Made by a program: the position numbers and the translations under genes
Notes under the pieces: generated by a model
Databases searched by the model: none
The model's input: only the letters and a program-made list of their open reading frames with translations
Told to the model about the DNA's origin: nothing
Origin: Patescibacteria group bacterium
GTDB lineage: Bacteria > Patescibacteriota > Minisyncoccia > Phycocordibacterales > UBA9973
Reading direction: 5' to 3'
DNA length: 64,000 nt
Assembly (NCBI GenBank): GCA_040390725.1
Contig: JAZJXT010000001.1
Span: forward strand, 85,070-149,069
In this document: positions 1 through 26,411 of the stretch, piece by piece
How the letters are laid out: every line of letters begins with the position of its first letter
Numbering within the stretch: the stretch's first letter is position 1

Positions 1-2409
<2,409 letters not shown>

Positions 2410-5227: not shown

Positions 5228-6733
5228 ATGGATACTCCACCAAAAAACAATCTGCGATGGTGGATTTTATTTACCGTTATTATAGGCACATTTTTAGGTA
5301 GGCTTGATCAGAGTATTGTAAATTTGGCTTTGCCGAAAATAATAAGTGATTTCGGTATTACTATTTCTGCCGCTGGCTGGATAGCTACTGCATATATTTT
5401 AGCCAATGCAGTATTCGTGCCTATTTGGGGAAAACTAGGAGACACGATAGGTAGAAAAAAAGTTTATATTATTGGATTTTCTATTTTTATTTTAGGCTCT
5501 GTGTTGGCGGGTTTGGCCTGGAATCTGACATCTATGATTATTTTCCGCGTGATTCAAGCCATTGCCGGCTCAGCGGATTATCCGACGGCGATGGCAATAA
5601 TAGCTGTCACCTTTAAAGAGGGTAAAGAACGTGCGCAGGCGCTCGGTATTTGGTCTTCGTCTTTTGCGGCAGCCATTGTTTTCGGTCCATTACTCGGTGG
5701 TCCGCTTATTGATAATTTTGGTTGGAGGTCTGTGTTTTTAATAAATTTGCCTATAGGAATTTTGGGTATTTATATGGCATTACGATTTATAAATGAATCA
5801 CGGTCAGAAATAAAAACGAAATTTTTTGATTGGTGGGGAGCATTTAGTTTGGGTGGTGCGCTTTCTGCTTTGGTGTTGGTATTGGACAAGGGTGCTGATT
5901 GGGGATGGTTTTCAGTAGGAAGTTTAATATGTTATTTCTTAGCCATTATTCTTTTTGGATTATTTCTTAAGATCGAGCAAGAAGTACCTGAGCCTATTAT
6001 TGATCTTAAATTTTTTAAAATTCCGGCTTTTGTAAATGCGCTTTTAAATAACTTTGTAGTTTTTATGGGAATGATGGGTGGAATTTTTTTGATACCTATT
6101 TTTGCGCAAACATTTTTAGGTTACAATGCGACGGAATCCGGTTATCTTTTTATACCGATGGCGGCCGCCATGATGTTAGGTTCACCGATAGGTGGAGCAT
6201 TGACTGGAAAAGTAAATTCAAAATATGTGATATTTGCCAGTACGTTAGTGGCATCTGTAGGGATTTTCTTTTTTAGTTTTCTTGATCCAAAATCAACAGC
6301 GCTTGATATTATAATCCCTCTATCTATCATGGCATTTGGATTGGGTTTTGGTATGGCTCAGCGTACGAGTATCATTGCATCCCTCGTTCCGCAAAGTGAA
6401 ATAGGGGTTGCTTCATCAGTTCTTGCATTAGTACGAAATTTATCAGGAGCATTCGGCATAGCGATATTTGCGACAATATTAAACAATAGAACTACTTCAA
6501 ATATTTTGAAGATAAACAGTTTTAGTAAACTATACAGTCATGCATCAACAGATGTTCAAAATTATATTTCGCTTATTATTCTGAAAGCTCAAGTAGATGC
6601 TTATGATTATGTATTCTTGGTTGCTGCGATAATGATTTTTGTAGGAGCTTTTCTTGCGCTTTTGTTAAAAGTAAAAAAGGGGAGTGACAATATCTCAACT
6701 AATAAAGAATTTTTAAATACTATTGAGGCTTAG
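5228..6733 (+). CDS. MFS transporter, DHA2 (EmrB/QacA-like, about 14 TMS) drug:H+ antiporter
   Basis: MFS motif A (GKLGDTIGRKKVY); about 14 hydrophobic segments; 501 aa; directly follows the two adaptor genes. Confidence 0.85.
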   Translation: MDTPPKNNLRWWILFTVIIGTFLGRLDQSIVNLALPKIISDFGITISAAGWIATAYILANAVFVPIWGKLGDTIGRKKVYIIGFSIFILGSVLAGLAWNLTSMIIFRVIQAIAGSADYPTAMAIIAVTFKEGKERAQALGIWSSSFAAAIVFGPLLGGPLIDNFGWRSVFLINLPIGILGIYMALRFINESRSEIKTKFFDWWGAFSLGGALSALVLVLDKGADWGWFSVGSLICYFLAIILFGLFLKIEQEVPEPIIDLKFFKIPAFVNALLNNFVVFMGMMGGIFLIPIFAQTFLGYNATESGYLFIPMAAAMMLGSPIGGALTGKVNSKYVIFASTLVASVGIFFFSFLDPKSTALDIIIPLSIMAFGLGFGMAQRTSIIASLVPQSEIGVASSVLALVRNLSGAFGIAIFATILNNRTTSNILKINSFSKLYSHASTDVQNYISLIILKAQVDAYDYVFLVAAIMIFVGAFLALLLKVKKGSDNISTNKEFLNTIEA

Positions 6734-9820: not shown

Positions 9821-10653
9821 TAGATAGTTCAAGAAATGTTGTTATAGAAAATATTTTAAATAAAAGAGATAAAGTGTCGGGGTCTGAAAATATTCGACCT
9901 CTTCTTTTTATTTTAGGCGGAGGAATGCGTGGAGTTTATGGGGCAGGTTCTGTCGTAGCTTTTAGAAAAATCGGTTTGGGTGATGTTTTTAGTCATGTTG
10001 TAGGTATTTCAACTGGTGCTCCGATAGGAGCATACTTTCTCGCTGGTGATGAGCAAGTACTCTTGGGGGCTTCGATATATTATGAAGAATGTGTCGGCAA
10101 AGAATTTATAAATTTTTTTCGTTTGGGGAAAATAGTAAATATTGATCACATAGTAAAACATATGCGTCACGGCAAAAAAGCATTGGATTGCGAGGCTATT
10201 AAAAAATCTAAAACAGAATTTTATGTTGAGGTTACCCTGAATACAGGTGAGTGCGCTTTGATAAACACAAAGACTGCGAGTCCAGATATGATTTCCTCGA
10301 TACATGCCTCGATGGCTTTGCCTATTTTATATGGTAAAAAAATTATTGTTAATAAGGATGAAGTCAATGACGGGTCATTTTGTAAATATCCTGTTTGGGA
10401 TGCAATAGAAAATTTAAATCCCACTGATGTTTTAATTTTGCCAAATAAAACACTGAAAGACGGTAAAAGTGTTTTGGAAATAAAAAAAGAAATTGCTAAA
10501 TTTTGTAAAAATGTGGAAATTCTTTGGCCTGCAAATATAGAGGTTGGTCAGCTAAATACAGATAAGAAAAAATTAAAATCAGCAGTTGAAAAATCAGCTG
10601 AGGCCACTCTTTGCGCATTTGGTTGTCCGAATGAAAAAATAACTCTTTTATGA
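9817..10653 (+). CDS. patatin-like phospholipase
   Basis: GGGMRGVYGAG oxyanion motif and GISTGA (GxSxG) nucleophile elbow; start overlaps the truB stop (ATGA). Confidence 0.85.
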   Translation: MIDSSRNVVIENILNKRDKVSGSENIRPLLFILGGGMRGVYGAGSVVAFRKIGLGDVFSHVVGISTGAPIGAYFLAGDEQVLLGASIYYEECVGKEFINFFRLGKIVNIDHIVKHMRHGKKALDCEAIKKSKTEFYVEVTLNTGECALINTKTASPDMISSIHASMALPILYGKKIIVNKDEVNDGSFCKYPVWDAIENLNPTDVLILPNKTLKDGKSVLEIKKEIAKFCKNVEILWPANIEVGQLNTDKKKLKSAVEKSAEATLCAFGCPNEKITLL

Positions 10654-10683: not shown

Positions 10684-11607
10684 ATGCTATTTTCCGCGAT
10701 ATTTACGATAGTCGGGCTTTCTCTTTTTGAGGCAATTTCGTCTTTGGATAATGCTGTTATCAACGCTGAGGCACTAGCCACGATGAGTCCCAAAGCAAAA
10801 CGCTGGTTTTTATTATGGGGTTTTTTATTTGCTGTTATTGTTGTGCGTGGTTTTTTACCATTCGTTATTGTCTGGGCTTTTAATCCGACTTTGAATGTGA
10901 TGCAAGTTTTGTCTGCAGCTTGGTCAAACAATCCTATTGTTCATGAATCAATTATGAAATCTTCTCCTATATTGCTCGTAGCCGGGGGAGTTTTTCTTTT
11001 GTTTTTATTTTTACATTGGTTATTTTTAGAGGATAAACATTTTGGCTTACCACAACCCGAGAAATTTTTTATGAAAAAGGGTGTTTGGTTCTATGCTGTT
11101 ATTTCAGTTATATTGTCTCTTGTCGCGTGGTTTGCTTTGAAACATAGTAACATGATGGGCTTTGGCGCAGTGATGGGTTCGACTTTATTTTTTATCACGC
11201 ACGGCTTCAAGCAAAATGCGGAAGAAGCTGAAAAAACTTTGACCAGTTCCGTAGGTTCTGATTTTAGCAAACTTTTATTTTTGGAAATAATTGATGCTAC
11301 TTTTTCTATCGATGGAGTATTGGGCGCGTTTGCATTTACTTTATCTGTGCCTTTAATTTTACTTGGTAATGGATTGGGTGCATATCTTGTGCGTAAATTT
11401 ACAGTAAGTAATATAGAAGTTATAAAAAAATATATTTACCTTAAAAATGGCGCGATGTATTCTATCTTAGCTTTGGGTGTCATTATGATTTTACAAAGTT
11501 TCGGTCACGAAATTCCGGAATATGTTTCTCCACTTATCACTATTATTATTATCGGTTTTTTCTTTTGGAAATCTAAAGTGATGATTAAAAATAATGCAAA
11601 AGTTTAA
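10684..11607 (+). CDS. TerC/DUF475-family integral membrane protein
   Basis: Two internal repeats, each with a (S/A)xDN/DG motif (SSLDNAV; IDATFSIDGVLGAF); about 7 TM segments. Confidence 0.55.
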   Translation: MLFSAIFTIVGLSLFEAISSLDNAVINAEALATMSPKAKRWFLLWGFLFAVIVVRGFLPFVIVWAFNPTLNVMQVLSAAWSNNPIVHESIMKSSPILLVAGGVFLLFLFLHWLFLEDKHFGLPQPEKFFMKKGVWFYAVISVILSLVAWFALKHSNMMGFGAVMGSTLFFITHGFKQNAEEAEKTLTSSVGSDFSKLLFLEIIDATFSIDGVLGAFAFTLSVPLILLGNGLGAYLVRKFTVSNIEVIKKYIYLKNGAMYSILALGVIMILQSFGHEIPEYVSPLITIIIIGFFFWKSKVMIKNNAKV

Positions 11608-14596
11608 CGAAGAATACAGAAAACTAAATAAAGCACAAAAGGAAGCTGTGGATAGTATCGACGGGCCGGTGATGGTGGTAGCGGGGCCGGGTACTGGGAA
11701 GACGCAGATTTTGGCTTTGAGGATAGCAAATATTTTAGAAAAAGCTGGTGCACAAGCAGATGAAATTTTGTGTCTGACTTTTACGAATTCCGGGGTGAAG
11801 GCGATGAAAAAAAGATTGGCGGAATACATAGGCAGTGATTCCGAAAAAGTTCGTATTTCGACATTTCACAGTTTTGGCATAAATTTAATCGAAAAAAATT
11901 ACGAGAATTTGGGTTTTAAAAAATTACCGACGCTCCTTTCCGACGATGAAGCAGTATTTCTCGTGGATGATATTTTGCAAAATAATGATTGGGAACATTT
12001 GCGTCCACGAGCAAATCCGGTAATGTATTTTTCTGATTTAAAACATTTAATTTCTATTTTAAAAAGAGAAGGCTTAAGTCCGGAAGAATTTTTGTCATTT
12101 GTCGAGGCGGACATAGAAAATTTGAAAAATGATCCGGAAAATATTTCTTCGAGAGGCGAGACAAAAGGACAATTAAAAAAAGAAATTAAAACAAAAATAG
12201 AATCCCTCGAACGCACGCGTGAAGTTGTGGAATTTTACAGAATTTATGAAGAGAAAAAACTCGAAAATGGATTGATGGATTATGACGACATTTTGGCTTA
12301 TACTGTCCGGCTCGCAGGTGAGTTTGAAGATATCAGCGCCGACATAAAAGAAAATTATCAATATATTTTGGTGGACGAACATCAAGACTCGAGCGGTGTG
12401 CAAAATAATTTCTTGAAAGCTGTCTGGAAAGGCGAAGAGAAGCCGAATATTTTCGTAGTAGGGGATGACAGACAATTGATTTACGGTTTTTCTGGCGCTT
12501 CGATGTCGTATTTTGAAGAATTTGCGCATATTTTCGGTAAAGCAAAACAAATTACTCTTACTGAGAATTATCGCTCTACTCAAAATATTTTAGACTTGGC
12601 GGATGATTTGTTAAAGAGTTCTATTACCAATGAAAACTTAAAAAGCAATACAAAAGGTAAAGAAAAAATAAATTTAAATGAATATGATTATCCGCGTGAT
12701 GAAATATTGGGCGCAGGTTTGTATTTCAAGAATAAAATTGAAAAAAAAGAATTAAAAATGGAAGACTGCGCAATACTCGTGCCGAAGAATTATCACGTGC
12801 GAAATGCCATAGAAATACTGCACAATATGGGTGTGCCTGTTTCTGCTGGCAAGAATTTGTCATTATTTGATGTGTCGGAAACACAAAGCTTGTTACGAGT
12901 TTTGAATATTACAGCAAAGCCATATGACAGTATTCCTCTTTCGGAATCATTGCTTGATAAATACAGCGGTATAGGCGCTTTTTCTGCGCATAAATTTTTA
13001 AAATCCCTGAAACCGGATAAATTAAATATTGAAAACTTGATATCAGAAGGCAAAGACGGTGGGCTTTTTGCCGGAGAAAATGCAATTTCAAAATGGGGAA
13101 GTAAATTAAAAAATTGGATTGATACTTTATCCAATGAAAAACTTTCGGTAGTAGTCAGCACTATCGGCAATGAATTTTTAATTGATCAATCAAAAACTCA
13201 CGAAGAGTTGATACGCAACGTCGAAGTTGTGCGCAGTTTTATACATATAGCAATGCTTTTTGAGCAGAAAAATAAAAATAAAGGTTTAGTAGAATTTTTG
13301 GAATATTTCAGAAGGTTGGAAAGCTATGGTAGTCACATTTCACTTGCGACTTTTGGCGCAGAGAGCGGTGTGCAAGTTATGACTTTGCATAAATCAAAAG
13401 GGCTCGAATATAAAGCTGTTTGGATAGCGCATATGAATGAAGAAGTGATAATGTCCGAAAAGAAAAATGGTTTTACTTTGCCGGAAGAAGTTAAGAAGCG
13501 ACTCGCCGAGAAGGATATTGAATCAGTAAAAAGGGAGCTGTATGTGGCTATTACTCGCGCGAAAGAGTTTTGTAATATATCGTATTCTGCGGAGAATTAT
13601 ACCGGTGGAGAGATGGAGCTCGCACATATCATCCGCGAATTGCCGGAAAATCATTTTATAAAAAAGACACAAGAAGAAACAGAAAAAGAAATTTTAGCAC
13701 ACGGTCCGCAAATATACACGAAAGTTGTAAAAAATAAGGAAGGAAATATCTTGGAAGATATAAAAACTTTTGTACGAGAAAATTATTCGGATAGTAAAGT
13801 TTCCGTGTCATTGCTGAATAATTTTTTCGAATGTCCTTGGAAATGGTATTTTAGAAATTTTTTGAAATTACCGGAAGTGAAAAGTTCGTCACTAGGACTC
13901 GGCTCCGCAGTGCACAGCACGATAGAATTTATTTTGAAATCTGCCGAAGCAAGGCTTCGGCAGAAAGTTTCGCAAAAAGAAATTTATGAAAAGATACTAT
14001 TTGAGTTGGAAAAAGAAGGAGTTAGTAATGAAACAGAATTAAAGAAATTAGCAAAAGATGCGGAGAATGCAGTATTGTATTGGGTGGAGAATTATTATAA
14101 AACTTTGGCGAAAGATTATATGTCGGAAAGGTCATTGCAATTCCGTGATGCAAAATTCCCGGAGCTTTTGATGTATGGAAAATTGGACTTAACGGAGAGA
14201 TTGGAAAATGGCGATGTGGTTATCACTGATTTTAAAACCGGCAGTGTGAAAACAAAAAATACAATAGAAAAAATCGACGAAGAGGGTAGGCTTTCGACAT
14301 TGATGCGCCAGCTTGCGATGTATTCATACCTCGTCGCGGGCGCAGAGCGGGGCAGAGATGTGTATGCCTCCAAACTTCTTTTCCTTGAGGCAAAAAAGGA
14401 CGACAAAAACGCTTTGTATTCTACGCACATAGATATAGAACAAATAGATTTGTTGATAAAAGATATAAGGGATTATGACAATCTTCTAAAAATAGGTGAT
14501 TGGGTAAATAGACCTTGCAACTATAATTCGTATGGCAAAAATACCAAATGTGAGTATTGCAAAAGAGCTGAAATATATATGCACCAAAGTATTTAA
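11594..14596 (+). CDS. UvrD/PcrA-family helicase fused to a C-terminal PD-(D/E)xK (RecB/Cas4-like) iron-sulfur nuclease (AddA-like)
   Basis: Walker A (AGPGTGKT), DEHQD, VGDDRQLIYGF, NYRST and TLHKSKGLEY helicase motifs; C-terminal GKLDL...ITDFKTG nuclease motif; 4-Cys cluster (FECPW ... CNY..C..C). Confidence 0.85.
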   Translation: MQKFNEEYRKLNKAQKEAVDSIDGPVMVVAGPGTGKTQILALRIANILEKAGAQADEILCLTFTNSGVKAMKKRLAEYIGSDSEKVRISTFHSFGINLIEKNYENLGFKKLPTLLSDDEAVFLVDDILQNNDWEHLRPRANPVMYFSDLKHLISILKREGLSPEEFLSFVEADIENLKNDPENISSRGETKGQLKKEIKTKIESLERTREVVEFYRIYEEKKLENGLMDYDDILAYTVRLAGEFEDISADIKENYQYILVDEHQDSSGVQNNFLKAVWKGEEKPNIFVVGDDRQLIYGFSGASMSYFEEFAHIFGKAKQITLTENYRSTQNILDLADDLLKSSITNENLKSNTKGKEKINLNEYDYPRDEILGAGLYFKNKIEKKELKMEDCAILVPKNYHVRNAIEILHNMGVPVSAGKNLSLFDVSETQSLLRVLNITAKPYDSIPLSESLLDKYSGIGAFSAHKFLKSLKPDKLNIENLISEGKDGGLFAGENAISKWGSKLKNWIDTLSNEKLSVVVSTIGNEFLIDQSKTHEELIRNVEVVRSFIHIAMLFEQKNKNKGLVEFLEYFRRLESYGSHISLATFGAESGVQVMTLHKSKGLEYKAVWIAHMNEEVIMSEKKNGFTLPEEVKKRLAEKDIESVKRELYVAITRAKEFCNISYSAENYTGGEMELAHIIRELPENHFIKKTQEETEKEILAHGPQIYTKVVKNKEGNILEDIKTFVRENYSDSKVSVSLLNNFFECPWKWYFRNFLKLPEVKSSSLGLGSAVHSTIEFILKSAEARLRQKVSQKEIYEKILFELEKEGVSNETELKKLAKDAENAVLYWVENYYKTLAKDYMSERSLQFRDAKFPELLMYGKLDLTERLENGDVVITDFKTGSVKTKNTIEKIDEEGRLSTLMRQLAMYSYLVAGAERGRDVYASKLLFLEAKKDDKNALYSTHIDIEQIDLLIKDIRDYDNLLKIGDWVNRPCNYNSYGKNTKCEYCKRAEIYMHQSI

Positions 14597-22549: not shown

Positions 22550-22957
22550 ATGGGACACAAAAATATGTTATATTTATTCGTTATTGGTAGGATTTTATTA
22601 GGAGGTTTTTTCTTATTGAATGGCTATAATCATATGAAAAATATGAAAATGATGGCCGGCTACGCAGGGTCAAAAGGTGTGCCGATGCCGACATTGGCAG
22701 TATTTGTCACAGGGCTAATGCTCCTTTTGGGTGGAGCAGGAATTTTGCTAGGAGTTTACGTAAGGGTTGCAATACTTTTACTTTCAATATTCTTAGTCGG
22801 CGTAAGTTTCAAAATGCATGATTATTGGAATCTTGAAGACCCAATGCAAAAAATGGTTCAGGAAATTAACTTCAAAAAGAATATGGCAATTTTAGGTGCA
22901 TTACTAATGATTTCCCTAATTCCATTATCCACATGGGCAATGTTGGCTTTGTTTTAA
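22550..22957 (+). CDS. DoxX family membrane protein
   Basis: 135 aa, 4 TM; DoxX-like N-terminus GRILLGGFFLLNGYNHM. Confidence 0.7.
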   Translation: MGHKNMLYLFVIGRILLGGFFLLNGYNHMKNMKMMAGYAGSKGVPMPTLAVFVTGLMLLLGGAGILLGVYVRVAILLLSIFLVGVSFKMHDYWNLEDPMQKMVQEINFKKNMAILGALLMISLIPLSTWAMLALF

Positions 22958-23020
22958 AAGTTTGACATTAGTTTTGATTTTGTTACTATTAAATTTATGA
23001 GATATATAAAACAAGCAAGC

Positions 23021-23077
23021 ATGTTTATGATGATGAAAAACCCAAATTTCGGGGTTGCTTGTTGTGTTGCATCATAA
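23021..23077 (+). other. candidate Met-rich leader micro-ORF (MFMMMKNPNFGVACCVAS), speculative
   Basis: 18-codon ORF with 4 Met in the first 5 codons and a CC pair; embedded in nested inverted repeats; followed by terminator hairpin 23108-23136, upstream of the DUF62 gene. Confidence 0.25.
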
Positions 23078-23107
23078 TCACTTAAATGTAAAAATGAAAC
23101 ACAAAAA

Positions 23108-23136
23108 ACAGCCTCGAAAGGGGCTGTTTTTTGTTC
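23108..23136 (+). terminator. rho-independent terminator / possible attenuator
   Basis: aacagcc-tcgaaag-ggctgtt followed by ttttgtt. Confidence 0.65.
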
Positions 23137-23176
23137 CTTTAGTTTTATTTTTGTTCTTTTTTAAACCCCAATACAT

Positions 23177-23935
23177 ATGTTGTTAGTTTACATTTCAGAT
23201 TGCCATGACCCTAACGCAAGGGGTCGGCTAGAAATTCGTTGTCGTGCATTGCTCGGTGGCTTGAGTTTCGTTTTTATCGGTGTTTCCAGTGAATTGGAAG
23301 CTTCGGGATGTTTGATTGATGCAATTGATGCATTGAAAGGTATTCCATGCATAATAATTGTAAATGTCGCTCCCAGGGGTGACAAAAAAAAGCATCCAAA
23401 TGGTATTCCGTTTTGCTTTAGTAAAGTCGGAGATATTACTATCATTGGTACACCGAATTGTTTTTCTTTAGCAAAGAAAATTGGCATATTATCAACTACA
23501 TCTGAAACCGATGTTTTGAGGGTATGTAAAATGTTTCTTGAGGAAAATGAAGCAAGACGAATTGCTAATTCTCAATTCAGGAGTTACGAATATCTTCCTT
23601 ATTTAGCTAAATGGCTTTCAGAAGGTAAAGATATTCCTGCGACGAAATTAAAGATTGCTGATTTTGGAAAAAAAGATTTTATTTGGTATGTTGATTGTTT
23701 TGGCAATTGCAAGACAACTATTTTTTCTAAAAAAGGTTTTTCACGCTGGAGTAATCGGGGATTTCGCCCTAAGTTCTATGAAAAATTGGCGGATATTCCA
23801 AGTGATGATCCTAGATCTTTTGTTGTTAAGGGAAGCTCCGGGTATGGCAATAAACGTTTTTTTGAAATTGTTTGTAAGGGTCGTTCTGCTAGTGAAACCC
23901 TTGGTTATTGTGTTGGTAAAGAGCTTCTTTATTGA
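23177..23935 (+). CDS. DUF62 family protein (SAM hydroxide adenosyltransferase / fluorinase-chlorinase fold), divergent
   Basis: By-eye match to archaeal DUF62: IVNVAPRGDKKK~VIDPGVGTERR; TPNCFSLA~PDNGLATL; YVDCFGNCKTTI~YIDDFGNVILNL; FEIVCKGRSASETLGYCVGKEL~[22 protein letters not shown]. N-terminal TDFG...MK motif replaced by SDCHDPNARGRLE. Confidence 0.6.
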   Translation: MLLVYISDCHDPNARGRLEIRCRALLGGLSFVFIGVSSELEASGCLIDAIDALKGIPCIIIVNVAPRGDKKKHPNGIPFCFSKVGDITIIGTPNCFSLAKKIGILSTTSETDVLRVCKMFLEENEARRIANSQFRSYEYLPYLAKWLSEGKDIPATKLKIADFGKKDFIWYVDCFGNCKTTIFSKKGFSRWSNRGFRPKFYEKLADIPSDDPRSFVVKGSSGYGNKRFFEIVCKGRSASETLGYCVGKELLY

Positions 23936-23960
23936 TTTTAGAGGGTAAGTTTTTATTCAA

Positions 23961-23991
23961 ATCACCTTGATTATGTCAGGGTGATTTTTTT
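23961..23991. terminator. bidirectional terminator region between convergent genes
   Basis: atcacc...ggtgat hairpin plus ttttttt on the + strand; adjacent gttagg...cctaac hairpin. Confidence 0.6.
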
Positions 23992-24818: not shown

Positions 24819-26411
24819 ATGTCAGTAAAAAATCATAATAAGGCTGTTGAGACATCAATTGTTTCCGGCCTAAAAAATGCTATTATAGTACTTTTTGCAA
24901 AATGCGTTTCTTGGGTGATTTATTGGCGTCACAGTATGCCCATAAAAAGACAGGAAAAAATGCTCAGGTATCTTGTTAAAAAAGCTAAGGACACAGATTT
25001 TGGAAAAGATCATTTTTTTTCTGAAATAAAAGGTGATACTTTTGATGAGTTTTACGAGAACTTTAAGAAAAATGTTCCTGTTACTGATTACGAGGGGTTT
25101 AAAGGTTACATTGAAAAAATTATAACCGGAAAGCCTAACGTATCGTGGCCAGGAATGCTACTTCATCTTGCAACTACTTCTGGTACAACATCAGGAGAAA
25201 AGCGTATCCCGATAAGCAAAGAATCTATTTGGACACATATTCGTTGCGCCTTTTATGCATTAATGTTTTATATTGCGAGAAGTGGAAATGCTTCCTTTAT
25301 GAGTGGTAAAATGATTTTCCTTTCAGGAAGTCCTGAACTGGAAAGTATAAATGGTATTCTTCTCGGAAGACTTTCAGGGATTGTGAATCTGTATGTTCCA
25401 GCTTTTTTTAAGAGAAAGCAAATGCCTTCTCTTCATGTAAATAGGATTAGAGAGTGGAAAGTTAAGATAGATGGAATTGTTGCTGAAACAAAAGATGAAG
25501 ATATGAGACTGGTAAGTGGAATCTCACCCTGGATACAAAATTATTTCGACAGGCTCCTGGAGGTGACTAGAAAGAAAACTGTTAAGGAAGTTTTTCCTAA
25601 TCTTTCTGTGGTTGTTCATGGGGGAGTAAATTTTGATTTGTATGAGCAACACATGCGCAGTACGATAGGAGGTCCGGTAGATTTTATTGAAACTGGTCCT
25701 GCGTCCGAAGGGTTTATGGGTGTACAGGATTCAAATAGTGAAGGGTTATTTTTGTTTTTAAATCAAGGAGTATTTTATGAATTTATTCCTGTTGGTGTAA
25801 ACGAGAATGAAAATTACCTTGACCTTAATGATTCATCAAAACGTATTTTTTTGAAAGATGTTAAGATGGGTGTTGAGTACGCTATAATTTTAACTACAAG
25901 CGCAGGTCTGTTTAGCTACTTGATTGGTGATACAGTAAAGCTGGTATCAAACAAACCACATCGGTTTGTTTTTACAGGTCGTACTGCGCACTTTATCTCT
26001 GCTTTTGGGGAGCATGTGATATCTAGACAGGTTGAAGAAGCAGTTAAGTCTGCAATGCAGGCAACGGATTCTAATTGTGTTGAATTTACTGTTGCTCCAT
26101 ATGTGGCTCCAAAAACAGGTGACTCATCATACTACGAATGGTTTATAGAATTTAGTAAACTTCCAAATGATATGGAAATGTTTAGCAAGGTTCTTGATGA
26201 TGTTTTGTGTAAACAAAATAATTATTACAGCCATAACATAGAAGGAGGTATTCTTCAGTCTTCTCAAATAAGGGTTATGCCAAAAGGTATATTTTTTAAA
26301 CATGCGGAACTTTGCGGTAAAGTAGGTTCTCAGTTTAAGCCTATTCGTCTTTCCAATAATCGAAAGATGGCAAATGAGATTAATGAGGTAAGTTTAGTCT
26401 ATTTTAGTTGA
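24819..26411 (+). CDS. GH3 family acyl-acid amido synthetase-like adenylating enzyme
   Basis: 530 aa; ATP/AMP motif TSGTTSGEKRIP (GH3 SSGTTxGxxKxxP); overall length and C-terminal organisation as in the GH3 auxin-responsive promoter family. Confidence 0.7.
   Translation: MSVKNHNKAVETSIVSGLKNAIIVLFAKCVSWVIYWRHSMPIKRQEKMLRYLVKKAKDTDFGKDHFFSEIKGDTFDEFYENFKKNVPVTDYEGFKGYIEKIITGKPNVSWPGMLLHLATTSGTTSGEKRIPISKESIWTHIRCAFYALMFYIARSGNASFMSGKMIFLSGSPELESINGILLGRLSGIVNLYVPAFFKRKQMPSLHVNRIREWKVKIDGIVAETKDEDMRLVSGISPWIQNYFDRLLEVTRKKTVKEVFPNLSVVVHGGVNFDLYEQHMRSTIGGPVDFIETGPASEGFMGVQDSNSEGLFLFLNQGVFYEFIPVGVNENENYLDLNDSSKRIFLKDVKMGVEYAIILTTSAGLFSYLIGDTVKLVSNKPHRFVFTGRTAHFISAFGEHVISRQVEEAVKSAMQATDSNCVEFTVAPYVAPKTGDSSYYEWFIEFSKLPNDMEMFSKVLDDVLCKQNNYYSHNIEGGILQSSQIRVMPKGIFFKHAELCGKVGSQFKPIRLSNNRKMANEINEVSLVYFS

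Follow-up and report, generated by a model that had tools for sequence, protein, structure and literature searches.

Organization of the spacer downstream of DoxX

The DNA analyzed here is a window of 64,000 nucleotides from the genome of a member of the Patescibacteria (CPR), and all positions refer to its forward strand. A gene for a DoxX protein (Pfam PF07681, E = 1.8e-12) occupies positions 22550–22957 and is followed by a gene with its start at 23177, which encodes a 252-aa protein. The spacer between the two genes is 219 nt long, as stated in an earlier sequence-only reading of the same DNA, and holds an attenuator-like element spanning 22962–23141. The individual features are compiled in Table 1. 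Folding of the spacer as a 223-nt stretch showed that it is more stable than expected by chance (z = −3.6).

The element opens with a putative promoter. Most of 36 related leaders have a TTGAC-like box equally far from the ATG of the leader ORF, and the distance from the end of the −10 box to this ATG was 6–7 nt in most leaders. Because the −10 box of the window ends 7 nt before ATG 22997, transcription is predicted to start at or next to the A of this ATG, and the mRNA is probably leaderless. An SD-like motif upstream of the leader ORF was found in 1 of the 36 related leaders only.

At the distal end of the element, the intrinsic terminator that had been proposed to follow the ORF was confirmed. 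Its hairpin (23101–23134) comprises 15 pairs, 6 of which are G-C, has a GAAA loop and a folding energy of −22.3 kcal/mol, and runs into a T tract. All copies of the element keep the terminator. The start of the downstream gene is 41 nt past position 23136, and no promoter-like site was found between the terminator and its ATG (23136–23177).

Table 1. Coordinates of the features of the leader and of its putative target gene in the 64,000-nt window
Feature	Position	Strand	Basis or remarks
−35 box, TTGACA	22962–22967	+	Promoter match 10/12, 16-nt spacer
Extended −10 box, TGtTACTAT	22981–22989	+	Ends 7 nt 5′ of ATG 22997
Segment 1, predicted 5′ arm of the anti-antiterminator, codons 1–8	22997–23020	+	MFE folds; duplex test
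Leader ORF, 26 codons + TAA, MRYIKQASMFMMMKNPNFGVACCVAS	22997–23077	+	ORF list; equivalent ORFs in relatives
Putative sensor codons (Met run), ATG TTT ATG ATG ATG	23021–23035	+	Conserved Met run
Small hairpin, AACCC-AAATTTC-GGGGTT, between Met run and segment 2	23039–23056	+	Present in core copies
Segment 2, predicted 5′ strand of the antiterminator, TCGGGGTTGCTTGTTGTGTTGCAT	23049–23072	+	RNAalifold consensus
Stop codon TAA of the leader ORF	23075–23077	+	ORF list
Segment 3, predicted 3′ strand of the antiterminator, ATGAAACACAAAAAACAGCCTCGA	23094–23117	+	Overlaps the 5′ half of the terminator
Intrinsic terminator (segments 3:4)	23101–23141	+	Stem-loop 23101–23134, U tract, conserved GTTC(C/T)TT tail
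Putatively regulated gene, 252-aa protein with DUF62 / SAM hydrolase-halogenase fold	23177–23935	+	Predicted structure, Foldseek
Terminator-like hairpin closing the transcription unit	23959–23987	+	13 pairs, then TTTTTATACGT

The leader ORF and its Met codons

The spacer had been described as containing an 18-codon ORF with four Met residues in the first five codons. This ORF is present (MFMMMKNPNFGVACCVAS, from ATG 23021 to TAA 23075–23077), but it is the 3′ part of a 26-codon frame that extends upstream to ATG 22997, and the 26-codon form rather than the shorter one is the version conserved in relatives. At the matching site, ORFs of 24–27 codons were found in 18 of 18 core copies (the near-copies described below) and ORFs of 14–29 codons in diverged copies. 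The Met run is always in frame with this upstream ATG, which in most leaders lies 6–7 nt past the −10 box, and no stop codon intervenes. With a single exception, all leaders carry 3–6 in-frame ATG codons, which are the only feature kept this widely. Codons flanking the run or interspersed in it vary (GCA, CCG, AAT, GAT, GTT, TTT, and others) while the ATGs stay. Since methionine has a single codon, conservation of the codon and conservation of the RNA word (AUGAUG) are inseparable by synonymous changes.

The C-terminal block of the peptide is read in two frames (...FGVAYCVA-stop versus ...RGCLLRCIN-stop), and a +1-nt insertion in the loop of the small hairpin shifts the reading frame in five copies. 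The DNA of the block is nearly invariant in spite of this, and the block is therefore conserved as an RNA element inside the ORF and not as protein. A conserved micro-protein or RiPP-like precursor (...PN(I/F)GVA(C/Y)C(V/I)A-stop) was considered and rejected, as five copies use the other frame and the C termini of diverged copies are unrelated. Cysteine, which had been suggested beside methionine as a second sensed residue, was given up as well: its codons depend on the frame and are absent from diverged leaders. The methionine part of the same suggestion is supported by the conservation of the Met run and by the alternative pairings described below. In our reading of the sequences, methionine is the only residue sensed and cysteine is not a sensor.

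Conservation of the element in related genomes

In dozens of diverged genomes, homologous genes are preceded by the same layout, irrespective of the gene farther upstream: a leaderless ATG opens a frame with 3–6 Met codons, which is closed by a stop codon and followed by a terminator. Conservation of the micro-ORF and of its Met run, which had been marked as a point to check, was borne out by 18 distinct near-copies and by 18 or more additional, diverged copies in front of homologous genes. The near-copies, referred to as core copies, share the promoter, the ATG, the Met run, the block GGGGTTGCTTNTTGNNNTGCAT, the stop codon, ATGAAAY, and the terminator. A covariance model yielded weaker matches in 14 more loci, on the + strand only and within ~100 nt upstream of the homologous gene, mostly directly abutting it. 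In each of these 14 loci, a Met run stands in a short ORF whose remaining peptide is unrelated.

Met-rich short ORFs, defined by at least four ATG codons within 7 codons, were counted in the 260 nt that precede the homologous genes. Such an ORF was present in 26 of 80 loci and was followed in each of the 26 by a hairpin and a T run. The background was 6 in 1.13 Mb, equivalent to 0.0014 per 260 nt, and the enrichment is thus ~240-fold. Other ATG-rich sites within the 64-kb window were without the layout of ORF plus terminator. In the copy of L090/L092 (leader at L092 10488–10631), Thr and Lys codons replace the Met run; to judge from the sequence of this one copy, the attenuator scaffold appears to be re-programmable.

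These data bear on the question of whether the ORF might have arisen by chance in the 3′ UTR or the terminator of DoxX and have no regulatory role. Short ORFs are common in AT-rich DNA, and no other terminator was found for DoxX before position 23101, both of which would suit such an origin. However, the upstream neighbor differs by genome, being rplU in L082 and L092 and one of several different unannotated coding regions elsewhere. A chance ORF is very improbable for an element that stands behind such unrelated genes, has its own promoter, and is enriched to the above extent upstream of homologous genes. Nor is the hairpin merely the terminator of DoxX, an objection that the sequence-only reading had raised against its own proposal: the upstream gene varies, the ORF is separated from DoxX by a promoter, and the antiterminator described in the next section is conserved.

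Alternative RNA pairings in the leader

Analysis of the structures overlapping the ORF, which had been recommended, revealed a conserved pairing between the 3′ part of the leader ORF and the terminator's 5′ half. This antiterminator, formed by segments 2 and 3 (2:3), is the RNAalifold consensus structure. In the alignment, 98.5% of the cells pair, compared with 36–50% in slid registers, and the pair at columns 79/116 shows perfect covariation, with G-C in 10 sequences, A-U in 7, and G-U in 1. The antiterminator fold of the window has an energy of −17.2 kcal/mol (z = −2.95). The mean of the per-sequence z values against shuffles was −2.7, with weak values (z > 0) in the core copies L083, L086, and L093. 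Cognate strands gave a duplex energy of −13.1 kcal/mol compared with −9.1 kcal/mol for non-cognate strands (p < 1e-4).

The anti-antiterminator, formed by segments 1 and 2 (1:2), was present in MFE folds. Here, the part AACAAGCAAGC of segment 1 (23010–23020) pairs with GCTTGTTGTGTT (23057–23068). For 27 leaders, the cognate 1:2 duplex had an energy of −12.6 kcal/mol compared with −9.0 kcal/mol for non-cognate combinations (p < 5e-5). A whole-fold shuffle test of 1:2 gave a mean z of −0.7, which is not better than chance. The small hairpin sequesters the G run of segment 2. The inverted repeats of the spacer had earlier been regarded as nested, which holds for two of them only: caagcaagc/gcttgttg encloses aaccc/gggtt, and the third repeat, tgatgatg/catcat, crosses it. 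The latter pairing needs an extra TCA codon unique to the window, is not conserved, and was dropped.

Segment 2 lies inside the ORF, starting 15 nt past the last Met codon and ending 3 nt before the stop codon. The gap between the last Met codon and segment 2 amounts to 12–21 nt across the copies. In most relatives, the stop codon falls within segment 2 or at most 8 nt after it, with outliers from 17 nt before to 13 nt after its end. Comparison of the sequences shows that the parts and their geometry are conserved, and it supports the complementarities of 1:2 and 2:3, which are lineage-specific; for 1:2, the supporting evidence is the cross-pairing test.

The structural data can also be held against the idea of a free-standing small gene, in which a Met-rich micro-protein or an sRNA would be encoded merely beside the DUF62-fold gene. 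A conserved antiterminator overlapping the terminator would be purposeless in such a gene. In addition, the peptide is unconserved beyond the Met run and has a C terminus in two frames, and the element is always located on the same strand and directly 5′ of a gene that, in the window, has no promoter-like site of its own. The element does possess a promoter-like site and a strong terminator and is conserved, as a small gene would be. Two published studies furthermore describe attenuator-derived RNAs and leader peptides that can act in trans in other bacteria (PMC6614838, PMC7298713). Overall, we consider a free-standing gene improbable.

Search for known RNA families

In the whole window, only RNase P and tRNAs reached the Rfam gathering score. 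The leader families stayed below it, with 24.5 bits for Thr_leader (RF00506) and 19.5 bits for Phe_leader (RF01859) at a gathering threshold of 55 in both cases. The Thr_leader match aligns little beyond the terminator and A/U runs. No match to a SAM riboswitch or a T-box was obtained at E values up to 10 across 22900–23250, and in eight related loci nothing scored above the gathering threshold. A Met-codon leader-peptide attenuator, or such control in a CPR lineage, was found neither in Rfam 15 nor in the literature searched.

An attenuator might also operate free of translation if the AUG repeats (AUGAUG-NNN-AUGAUGAUG) in the loop of 1:2 were bound by a ligand or a protein. The binder would be either Met or SAM, in which case the leader would be a new riboswitch, or a TRAP-like triplet-repeat protein, and binding would stabilize 1:2 and favor the terminator. 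TRAP of B. subtilis binds (G/U)AG triplet repeats (PMC3064811). The same three alternative structures would suit this type of control. Its other attractions are an invariance of the AUG words and of a 20-nt block that is uncommon among leader-peptide attenuators, and the single codon of Met, owing to which conservation of the RNA and conservation of the codon cannot be told apart. Binding without translation leaves unexplained, however, why an ATG follows the −10 box by 6–7 nt in most leaders, why the AUG run is always in frame with this ATG and free of an intervening stop, and why in most copies a stop codon comes inside segment 2 or directly behind it, even after the +1 insertion. In diverged leaders, conservation is limited to the ORF with its ATG run and to the helices, so that a conserved aptamer core cannot be seen in them, and the Rfam searches matched neither a SAM riboswitch, a T-box, nor another family. 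A translation-free attenuator is therefore judged unlikely.

The DUF62-fold protein and other genes behind the leader

The product of the downstream gene had been assigned to the DUF62 family. At the sequence level, this placement did not hold. Pfam gave only a sub-threshold match to the C-terminal domain (PF20257, 16.9 bits compared with a cutoff of 25.5) and did not detect the N-terminal domain PF01887; NCBIfam yielded no match, and a profile search of the PDB reached E values of only about 0.07–0.1. At the fold level, the assignment was upheld. The AF2 model of the 252-aa protein had a pLDDT of 93 and a pTM of 0.91, and the top 36 PDB matches in a Foldseek search with it were all DUF62 proteins, chlorinases, or fluorinases (probability 1.00, TM 0.51–0.70, E 4e-10 to 1e-6, both domains covered). 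On the basis of the predicted structure, the protein is a distant member of the DUF62 fold with a putative SAM-cleaving activity. Invariant residues of the family are D8, N13, R17, N63, R67, SQFRS 132–136, and DxFGN 173–177. The more divergent "VTDCGGSD" proteins of L088 gave an hhalign probability of 3.9% with the DUF62-fold family; they resemble it in the motifs TDCGG, NAAPR, and FRS.

Other genes were found behind the leader as well. In L092, it precedes a gene for a homolog of MmtN, a Met S-methyltransferase (PDB 7vvv, E = 1.8e-30), which is followed by a gene for a homocysteine S-methyltransferase (PF02574, E = 1.8e-57). Some leader copies (L081/L082, L091, L093) precede small proteins, and neither these nor the small downstream protein of L092 (10609–10935) had a Pfam or PDB match.

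Proposed mechanism

The reading we favor, with a probability of about 70%, is a transcription attenuator of the classical ribosome-mediated, leader-peptide type, with methionine sensed via the supply of charged elongator tRNA-Met. The downstream gene would most likely be turned on when methionine runs short. From the sequences we infer translation of the leader, stalling at the Met codons, and an enzyme that releases or makes methionine.

According to this model, the first product of transcription would be the leaderless 26-codon ORF from 22997, and the transcript could adopt three mutually exclusive pairings: 1:2, 2:3 (antiterminator), and 3:4 (terminator). With plentiful methionine, the ribosome would reach the stop codon at 23075–23077 and cover segment 2, the 3:4 hairpin would form, and transcription would terminate before the gene. 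If no ribosome is loaded, pairing of the first codons with 23049–23072 (1:2) would lead to termination as well. When Met-tRNA is scarce, the ribosome would stall on the ATG run at 23021–23035 and hold segment 1 and the small hairpin open. Segment 2 would stay free under the stalled ribosome because it begins 15 nt beyond the ATG run, and it could pair with segment 3 (23094–23117). The terminator would then not form, and the DUF62-fold gene would be transcribed.

The wider proposal is that leaderless Met-codon attenuators form a family that defines a regulon of methionine starvation in Patescibacteria and in some further uncultured lineages, with the divergent DUF62-fold enzyme as its commonest member. 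We give this extension even odds.

Implications for methionine control

Known regulators of methionine and SAM genes are SAM riboswitches, Met T-boxes, and protein repressors. The Patescibacteria or CPR are uncultured episymbionts with reduced genomes, and to our knowledge very little of their gene regulation has been elucidated. A conserved attenuator of the proposed kind would be direct sequence evidence for coupling of transcription and translation in CPR bacteria and would imply that they monitor the charging of tRNA-Met. The regulatory link also suggests a role for this divergent branch of DUF62 proteins or SAM hydrolases, namely methionine supply in starvation; if true, the DUF62 enzyme family, long enigmatic, would serve to regain methionine from SAM or from a related sulfonium compound at times of methionine shortage. 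The leader in front of the pair of MmtN-like and homocysteine S-methyltransferase genes points to an S-methylmethionine cycle under methionine control. The covariance model built here can be used for annotating the regulon across CPR genomes. The cellular function of the DUF62 superfamily is under debate. Recent work proposes that it serves to remove (R)-SAM, an inactive epimer (bioRxiv 10.1101/2025.08.29.672840, PMC12120602).

Comparison with known systems

The model of the 252-aa protein resembles DUF62 proteins or SAM hydroxide adenosyltransferases (PH0463, MJ1651, and the TM homolog), the chlorinase SalL, and the fluorinase FlA. They have a C-terminal DxFGN motif in common with it, at an identity of only 11–17%. 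We know of no report of a DUF62 enzyme under Met-codon attenuation.

SAM riboswitches (SAM-I to SAM-VI, SAM/SAH) and Met T-boxes share with the present element the location in a cis-acting 5′ leader, the choice between terminator and antiterminator, and the association with Met or SAM genes. They differ in what is recognized. The riboswitches sense SAM, and the T-boxes sense uncharged tRNA-Met by RNA-RNA contact, neither of which needs an ORF, whereas the present leader contains Met codons in an ORF and lacks a recognizable aptamer.

Classical attenuators are those of the trp, his, leu, thr, phe, and ilv operons of Proteobacteria, represented in Rfam by the Trp, His, Leu, Thr, and Phe leaders. 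Like these, the leader described here combines a short ORF containing a codon run for one amino acid with the predicted, mutually exclusive pairings 1:2, 2:3, and 3:4, and a ribosome terminating at its stop codon would mask segment 2. Some of the downstream genes would likewise relate to the amino acid presumably sensed, to judge from homology or predicted fold. In contrast to the classical systems, methionine would be sensed and the host belongs to the Patescibacteria/CPR. The mRNA is apparently leaderless, with segment 1 formed by the first codons of the ORF, and the sensor codons occupy the loop that separates segment 1 from segment 2, and not segment 1 itself. The regulated gene encodes a predicted salvage-type enzyme instead of a biosynthetic operon.

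A further parallel is provided by the leaderless poly-cysteine short ORFs of mycobacteria, where a stalled ribosome remodels the downstream RNA and raises the expression of Cys genes (Canestrari et al., bioRxiv 10.1101/834739). Several mycobacterial loci share this poly-cysteine device and together make up a "ribulon" in the terms of that study (bioRxiv 10.1101/834739). Both systems have a leaderless short ORF as the first cistron, with a codon run for a sulfur amino acid, and both occur at several loci. The output proposed here consists of an intrinsic terminator with a competing antiterminator, and the codon run is one of methionine in CPR bacteria, compared with cysteine in Actinobacteria.

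Layout of the leader

Genome sequence around the leader region is low in GC. The 219-nt spacer between the DoxX gene and the downstream ORF combines a promoter-like site, a short ORF and a terminator-like hairpin (see table), and its fold is more stable than that of shuffled sequences (z = -3.6). No promoter-like site was found between the leader hairpin and the ATG of the regulated gene. The sequence-only reading had described a Met-rich ORF plus terminator ahead of the gene, which sequence and fold bear out in substance. Its 18-codon ORF (start at 23021) exists, but as the 3' two-thirds of a 26-codon ORF. The inverted repeats it listed are likewise present but not all nested, as tgatgatg/catcat, a window-specific pairing, crosses the other two.

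Coordinates of the leader and associated features
Locus	Feature	Position	Remark
Window	ORF, 212 aa	21865-22503	weak Vasohibin similarity (E=7e-4, 19.4 bits, cutoff 24)
Window	DoxX gene	22550-22957	PF07681 match
Window	-35 box TTGACA	at 22962	promoter-like; 16-nt spacer to -10 box
Window	-10 box TGtTACTAT	end at 22989	promoter-like
Window	Leader ORF start, ATG	22997	7 nt past -10 box
Window	Leader ORF, 26 codons	22997-23077	MRYIKQASMFMMMKNPNFGVACCVAS
Window	Antiterminator 5' arm (segment 2)	23049-23072	nearly invariant block; RNAalifold
Window	Antiterminator 3' arm (segment 3)	23094-23117	ATGAAAC...CAGCCTCGA; RNAalifold
Window	15-pair hairpin, then T tract	23101-23134	terminator-like
Window	Regulated gene, 252-aa ORF	23177-23935	
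Window	Second terminator-like hairpin	23959-23987	closes transcription unit
Window	530-aa protein	24819-26411	all three GH3 (acyl-acid amido synthetase) domains: PF03321, PF23571, PF23572
L092 = L090	Thr/Lys leader copy	10488-10631 = 2704-2847	just after rplU
L092	MmtN-like + homocysteine S-methyltransferase operon	11240-13094	
L088	Second conserved hairpin	about 13060-13200	- strand
L089	Second conserved hairpin	about 250-385	- strand
L091	Second conserved hairpin	about 5290-5340	

Vasohibin has a transglutaminase-like cysteine protease fold.

Conservation among relatives

The window's downstream protein has a 100% identical counterpart in a 'Patescibacteria group bacterium' MAG. Its homologs otherwise share at most 60% identity with it, and 80 genomic loci encoding them were compared. 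In seven of the most similar loci, the same element immediately precedes the gene. The gene preceding the element varies, so the hairpin is not merely the DoxX terminator. Searching metagenome contigs for the best-conserved DNA segment added 13 loci, and 18 distinct close copies were obtained in total. All 18 have a -35/-10 pair, an ATG 6-8 nt past the -10 box that opens a 24- to 27-codon ORF, and the block GGGGTTGCTTNTTGNNNTGCAT, almost unchanged between copies, with the stop codon at its end or 5-6 nt beyond. The motif ATGAAAY and a terminator with a GTTCTTT tail are likewise present in each. An in-frame run of 3-6 ATG codons is kept in every copy except a Thr/Lys variant.

A covariance model built from the 18 copies was searched against all collected loci sequence and gave additional weak matches in 14 more loci (+ strand only). 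These sites lie within ~100 nt upstream of the homologous gene, mostly directly abutting it, and each locus has a short Met-run ORF. The encoded peptides, for example MIFKKAQNMMMAMMTQIRKAIVLCI, MQKRFAMMMAMMTPRRGGVLPA, MKIYSVNMMEMMTS and, from a 58%-GC locus, MQRSSAIMMMSMMMTASPGPDVLRM, show no relatedness beyond the Met run. Because the model includes the ATG run, the enrichment test was repeated without it, using ORFs of at most 45 codons with at least 4 ATG codons within 7, located no more than 260 nt ahead of the gene. Such ORFs occurred in 26 of the 80 loci, compared with 6 on both strands of the remaining 1.13 Mb, which excludes a chance ORF. A hairpin and T run follow all of the upstream ORFs; the six background ORFs lie inside genes and lack them.

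With an A run 5' and a T run 3' of its stem, the leader terminator is symmetric and is scored as one in either direction, which accounts for weak reverse-strand matches of the model at every leader copy. No convergent gene uses the reverse orientation in the window. Met-run leaders with GC-rich terminators were seen upstream of the same gene family in three GC-rich loci (L034, L022 and L039; GC 58% or similar) labelled Binatia or 'uncultured Gammaproteobacteria'; either the device is not limited to AT-rich Patescibacteria or the MAG labels are unreliable. Eight loci, falling into two groups (L004, L006, L007 and L008; L012-L015), have the DUF62-fold gene without a leader, only a few bases past the preceding gene; members of a group share the coding sequence that lies upstream. 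The proposed attenuator control has thus been repeatedly gained or lost within the gene family.

Transcription start and the C-terminal block

Start sites were compared in 36 leaders. As a rule, a TTGAC-like -35 box is present and the -10 hexamer ends 6-7 nt before the ATG; one subgroup has TTTAAT/TTAACT-type -10 boxes 17 nt past a perfect TTGACT. This spacing, together with an SD-like motif in only 1 of 36 leaders, suggests that the transcript probably begins with the AUG and is leaderless.

In five copies (L083, L086, L088, L089 and L093), the small hairpin 3' of the Met run has a loop that is longer by one base. They read the block as ...TQICRGCLLRCIN before the stop, where the others read ...PNFGVAYCVA, and still reach a nearby stop codon. 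Two reading frames over one invariant block place its conservation at the nucleic-acid level, although an open frame across it is maintained. A conserved micro-protein is ruled out by the two-frame reading. Cys codons, proposed earlier as sensors along with Met, were dropped since they fall in this frame-dependent block; the Met part stands, as the ATG run is kept.

Alternative pairings and proposed mechanism

The RNAalifold consensus of the 18 copies is not the terminator but a long helix between segments 2 and 3, whose 3' arm overlaps the 5' half of the terminator; an alternative pairing overlapping the ORF is therefore conserved. This 2:3 pairing holds in 98.5% of alignment cells, compared with 36-50% after shifting the partner strand by 1-3 columns, and one pair covaries without breaks (G-C in 10, A-U in 7, G-U in 1). 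Folded one by one over the stretch that starts 12 nt beyond the Met run and ends at the terminator loop, nearly all of 32 leaders formed it (mean z -2.7 relative to dinucleotide-shuffled upstream arms). Terminator stems vary by lineage (GGCCTTC, CCCTCC, GACCGGCCC...), which allowed cognate and non-cognate arms to be compared: 2:3 pairing averaged -13.1 versus -9.1 kcal/mol (27 leaders; 0 of 10,000 permutations as good). For 1:2, the first codons were paired with the 30 nt past the stall site, giving -12.6 versus -9.0 kcal/mol (0 of 20,000). In many leaders a 5'-terminal AUGCA pairs with UGCAU beside the stop, and the 1:2 hairpin spans the whole ORF. A less refined shuffle test on whole folds gave no significant result for 1:2, which makes this pairing the weakest arm of the model.

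Segment 2 starts 12-21 nt past the last Met codon (15 nt in the window), and the stop codon of most leaders is located inside segment 2 or at most 8 nt beyond its end. From the length of mRNA that a ribosome normally covers, one stalled on the Met codons would be expected to occupy segment 1 and the small hairpin and leave segment 2 free, and one at the stop codon to mask segment 2. In the window, pairing energies are about -17.5 (1:2), -17.2 (2:3) and -22.3 (3:4) kcal/mol, and the antiterminator could win only kinetically, as in classical attenuators. We consider the leader to be a ribosome-mediated transcription attenuator that would report tRNA-Met charging (probability about 0.7). That methionine has one codon would also suit an RNA-only switch in which the AUG repeats are recognised by a ligand or by a TRAP-like protein, but this is unlikely: it does not explain why the predicted transcription start falls on an ATG, why the AUG run is always in frame with that ATG or why the stop codon keeps its place whatever the frame, and the diverged leaders share no conserved aptamer core. 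A free-standing micro-protein or sRNA gene is still less credible, as it explains neither the antiterminator nor the invariable placement ahead of a gene that lacks a promoter-like site of its own. The earlier interpretation is supported by the sequence comparisons, with ORF and Met run conserved in 18 close copies plus diverged loci, and is corrected in three respects: Met as the only sensed residue, a 26-codon, probably leaderless ORF, and pairings that are alternatives and not nested.

A second long conserved hairpin (GAACATATTGGG...CCAATATGTTC) lies between leader terminator and downstream gene in three loci; it has no Rfam match and may be a tandem second regulatory element.

Putative regulated genes and the Thr/Lys variant

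The predicted structure of the window protein is confident (pLDDT 93). The 36 best matches in the PDB are without exception DUF62 SAM hydrolases (PH0463, MJ1651 and the Thermotoga homolog), chlorinases (SalL, ClA1/2) or fluorinases, with TM 0.51-0.70 and 11-17% identity. The DUF62 assignment made from sequence thus holds for the fold; at the sequence level only the C-domain matches, below threshold. Sharing this fold and some motifs, the protein is a putative family member that may cleave SAM. Other copies of the leader precede small proteins of no recognisable function, and also proteins that have diverged further but resemble the DUF62-fold family in their N-terminal motifs (VTDCGGSD) and are possible relatives of it. 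In contig L092 it precedes a homolog of the Met S-methyltransferase MmtN (PDB 7vvv, E=1.8e-30; structure identified in PMC9135737), followed 3' by a homocysteine S-methyltransferase (PF02574, E=1.8e-57). This pair, by similarity the two enzymes that make up an S-methylmethionine cycle, connects the leader with methionine chemistry in a way that does not depend on the DUF62-fold gene. The flanking genes (cysS, an AI-2E-type permease, rplU) are uninformative on lineage.

The Thr/Lys copy, 591 nt upstream of the Met-run copy in L090/L092, has ACA AAA ACA AAG AAG (T K T K K) in place of the Met run and keeps the whole scaffold (promoter, ATG, block, ATGAAAC, terminator). Its downstream ORF of about 85 aa has no recognisable function. 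At the same post-rplU position, locus L082 has a normal Met-run leader and a 78-aa ORF without assigned function. The variant fits a modular sensor with swappable codons; it could also be a decaying duplicate.

Comparison with known systems

The leader would be a widely conserved regulator in a poorly understood lineage and sets a divergent family of DUF62-fold enzymes in a physiological context that can be tested. No Rfam 15 family reached threshold in the spacer, the whole window or eight related loci, where neither a SAM riboswitch nor a T-box was detected; the best weak match in the spacer was Thr_leader (24.5 bits, gathering score 55). The literature searched contained no Met-codon leader peptides and no attenuation in Patescibacteria/CPR, an absence that does not prove that there are none. 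In its proposed mechanism the leader is like the trp, his, leu, thr and phe attenuators, but it falls outside all their Rfam families and differs in the amino acid sensed and in lineage. Unlike them, it is probably leaderless, with the ORF start as segment 1 and the sensor codons between segments 1 and 2. The nearest published relatives in design are the mycobacterial leaderless poly-Cys short ORFs, which control translation via an exposed ribosome-binding site and not via a terminator (10.1101/834739).
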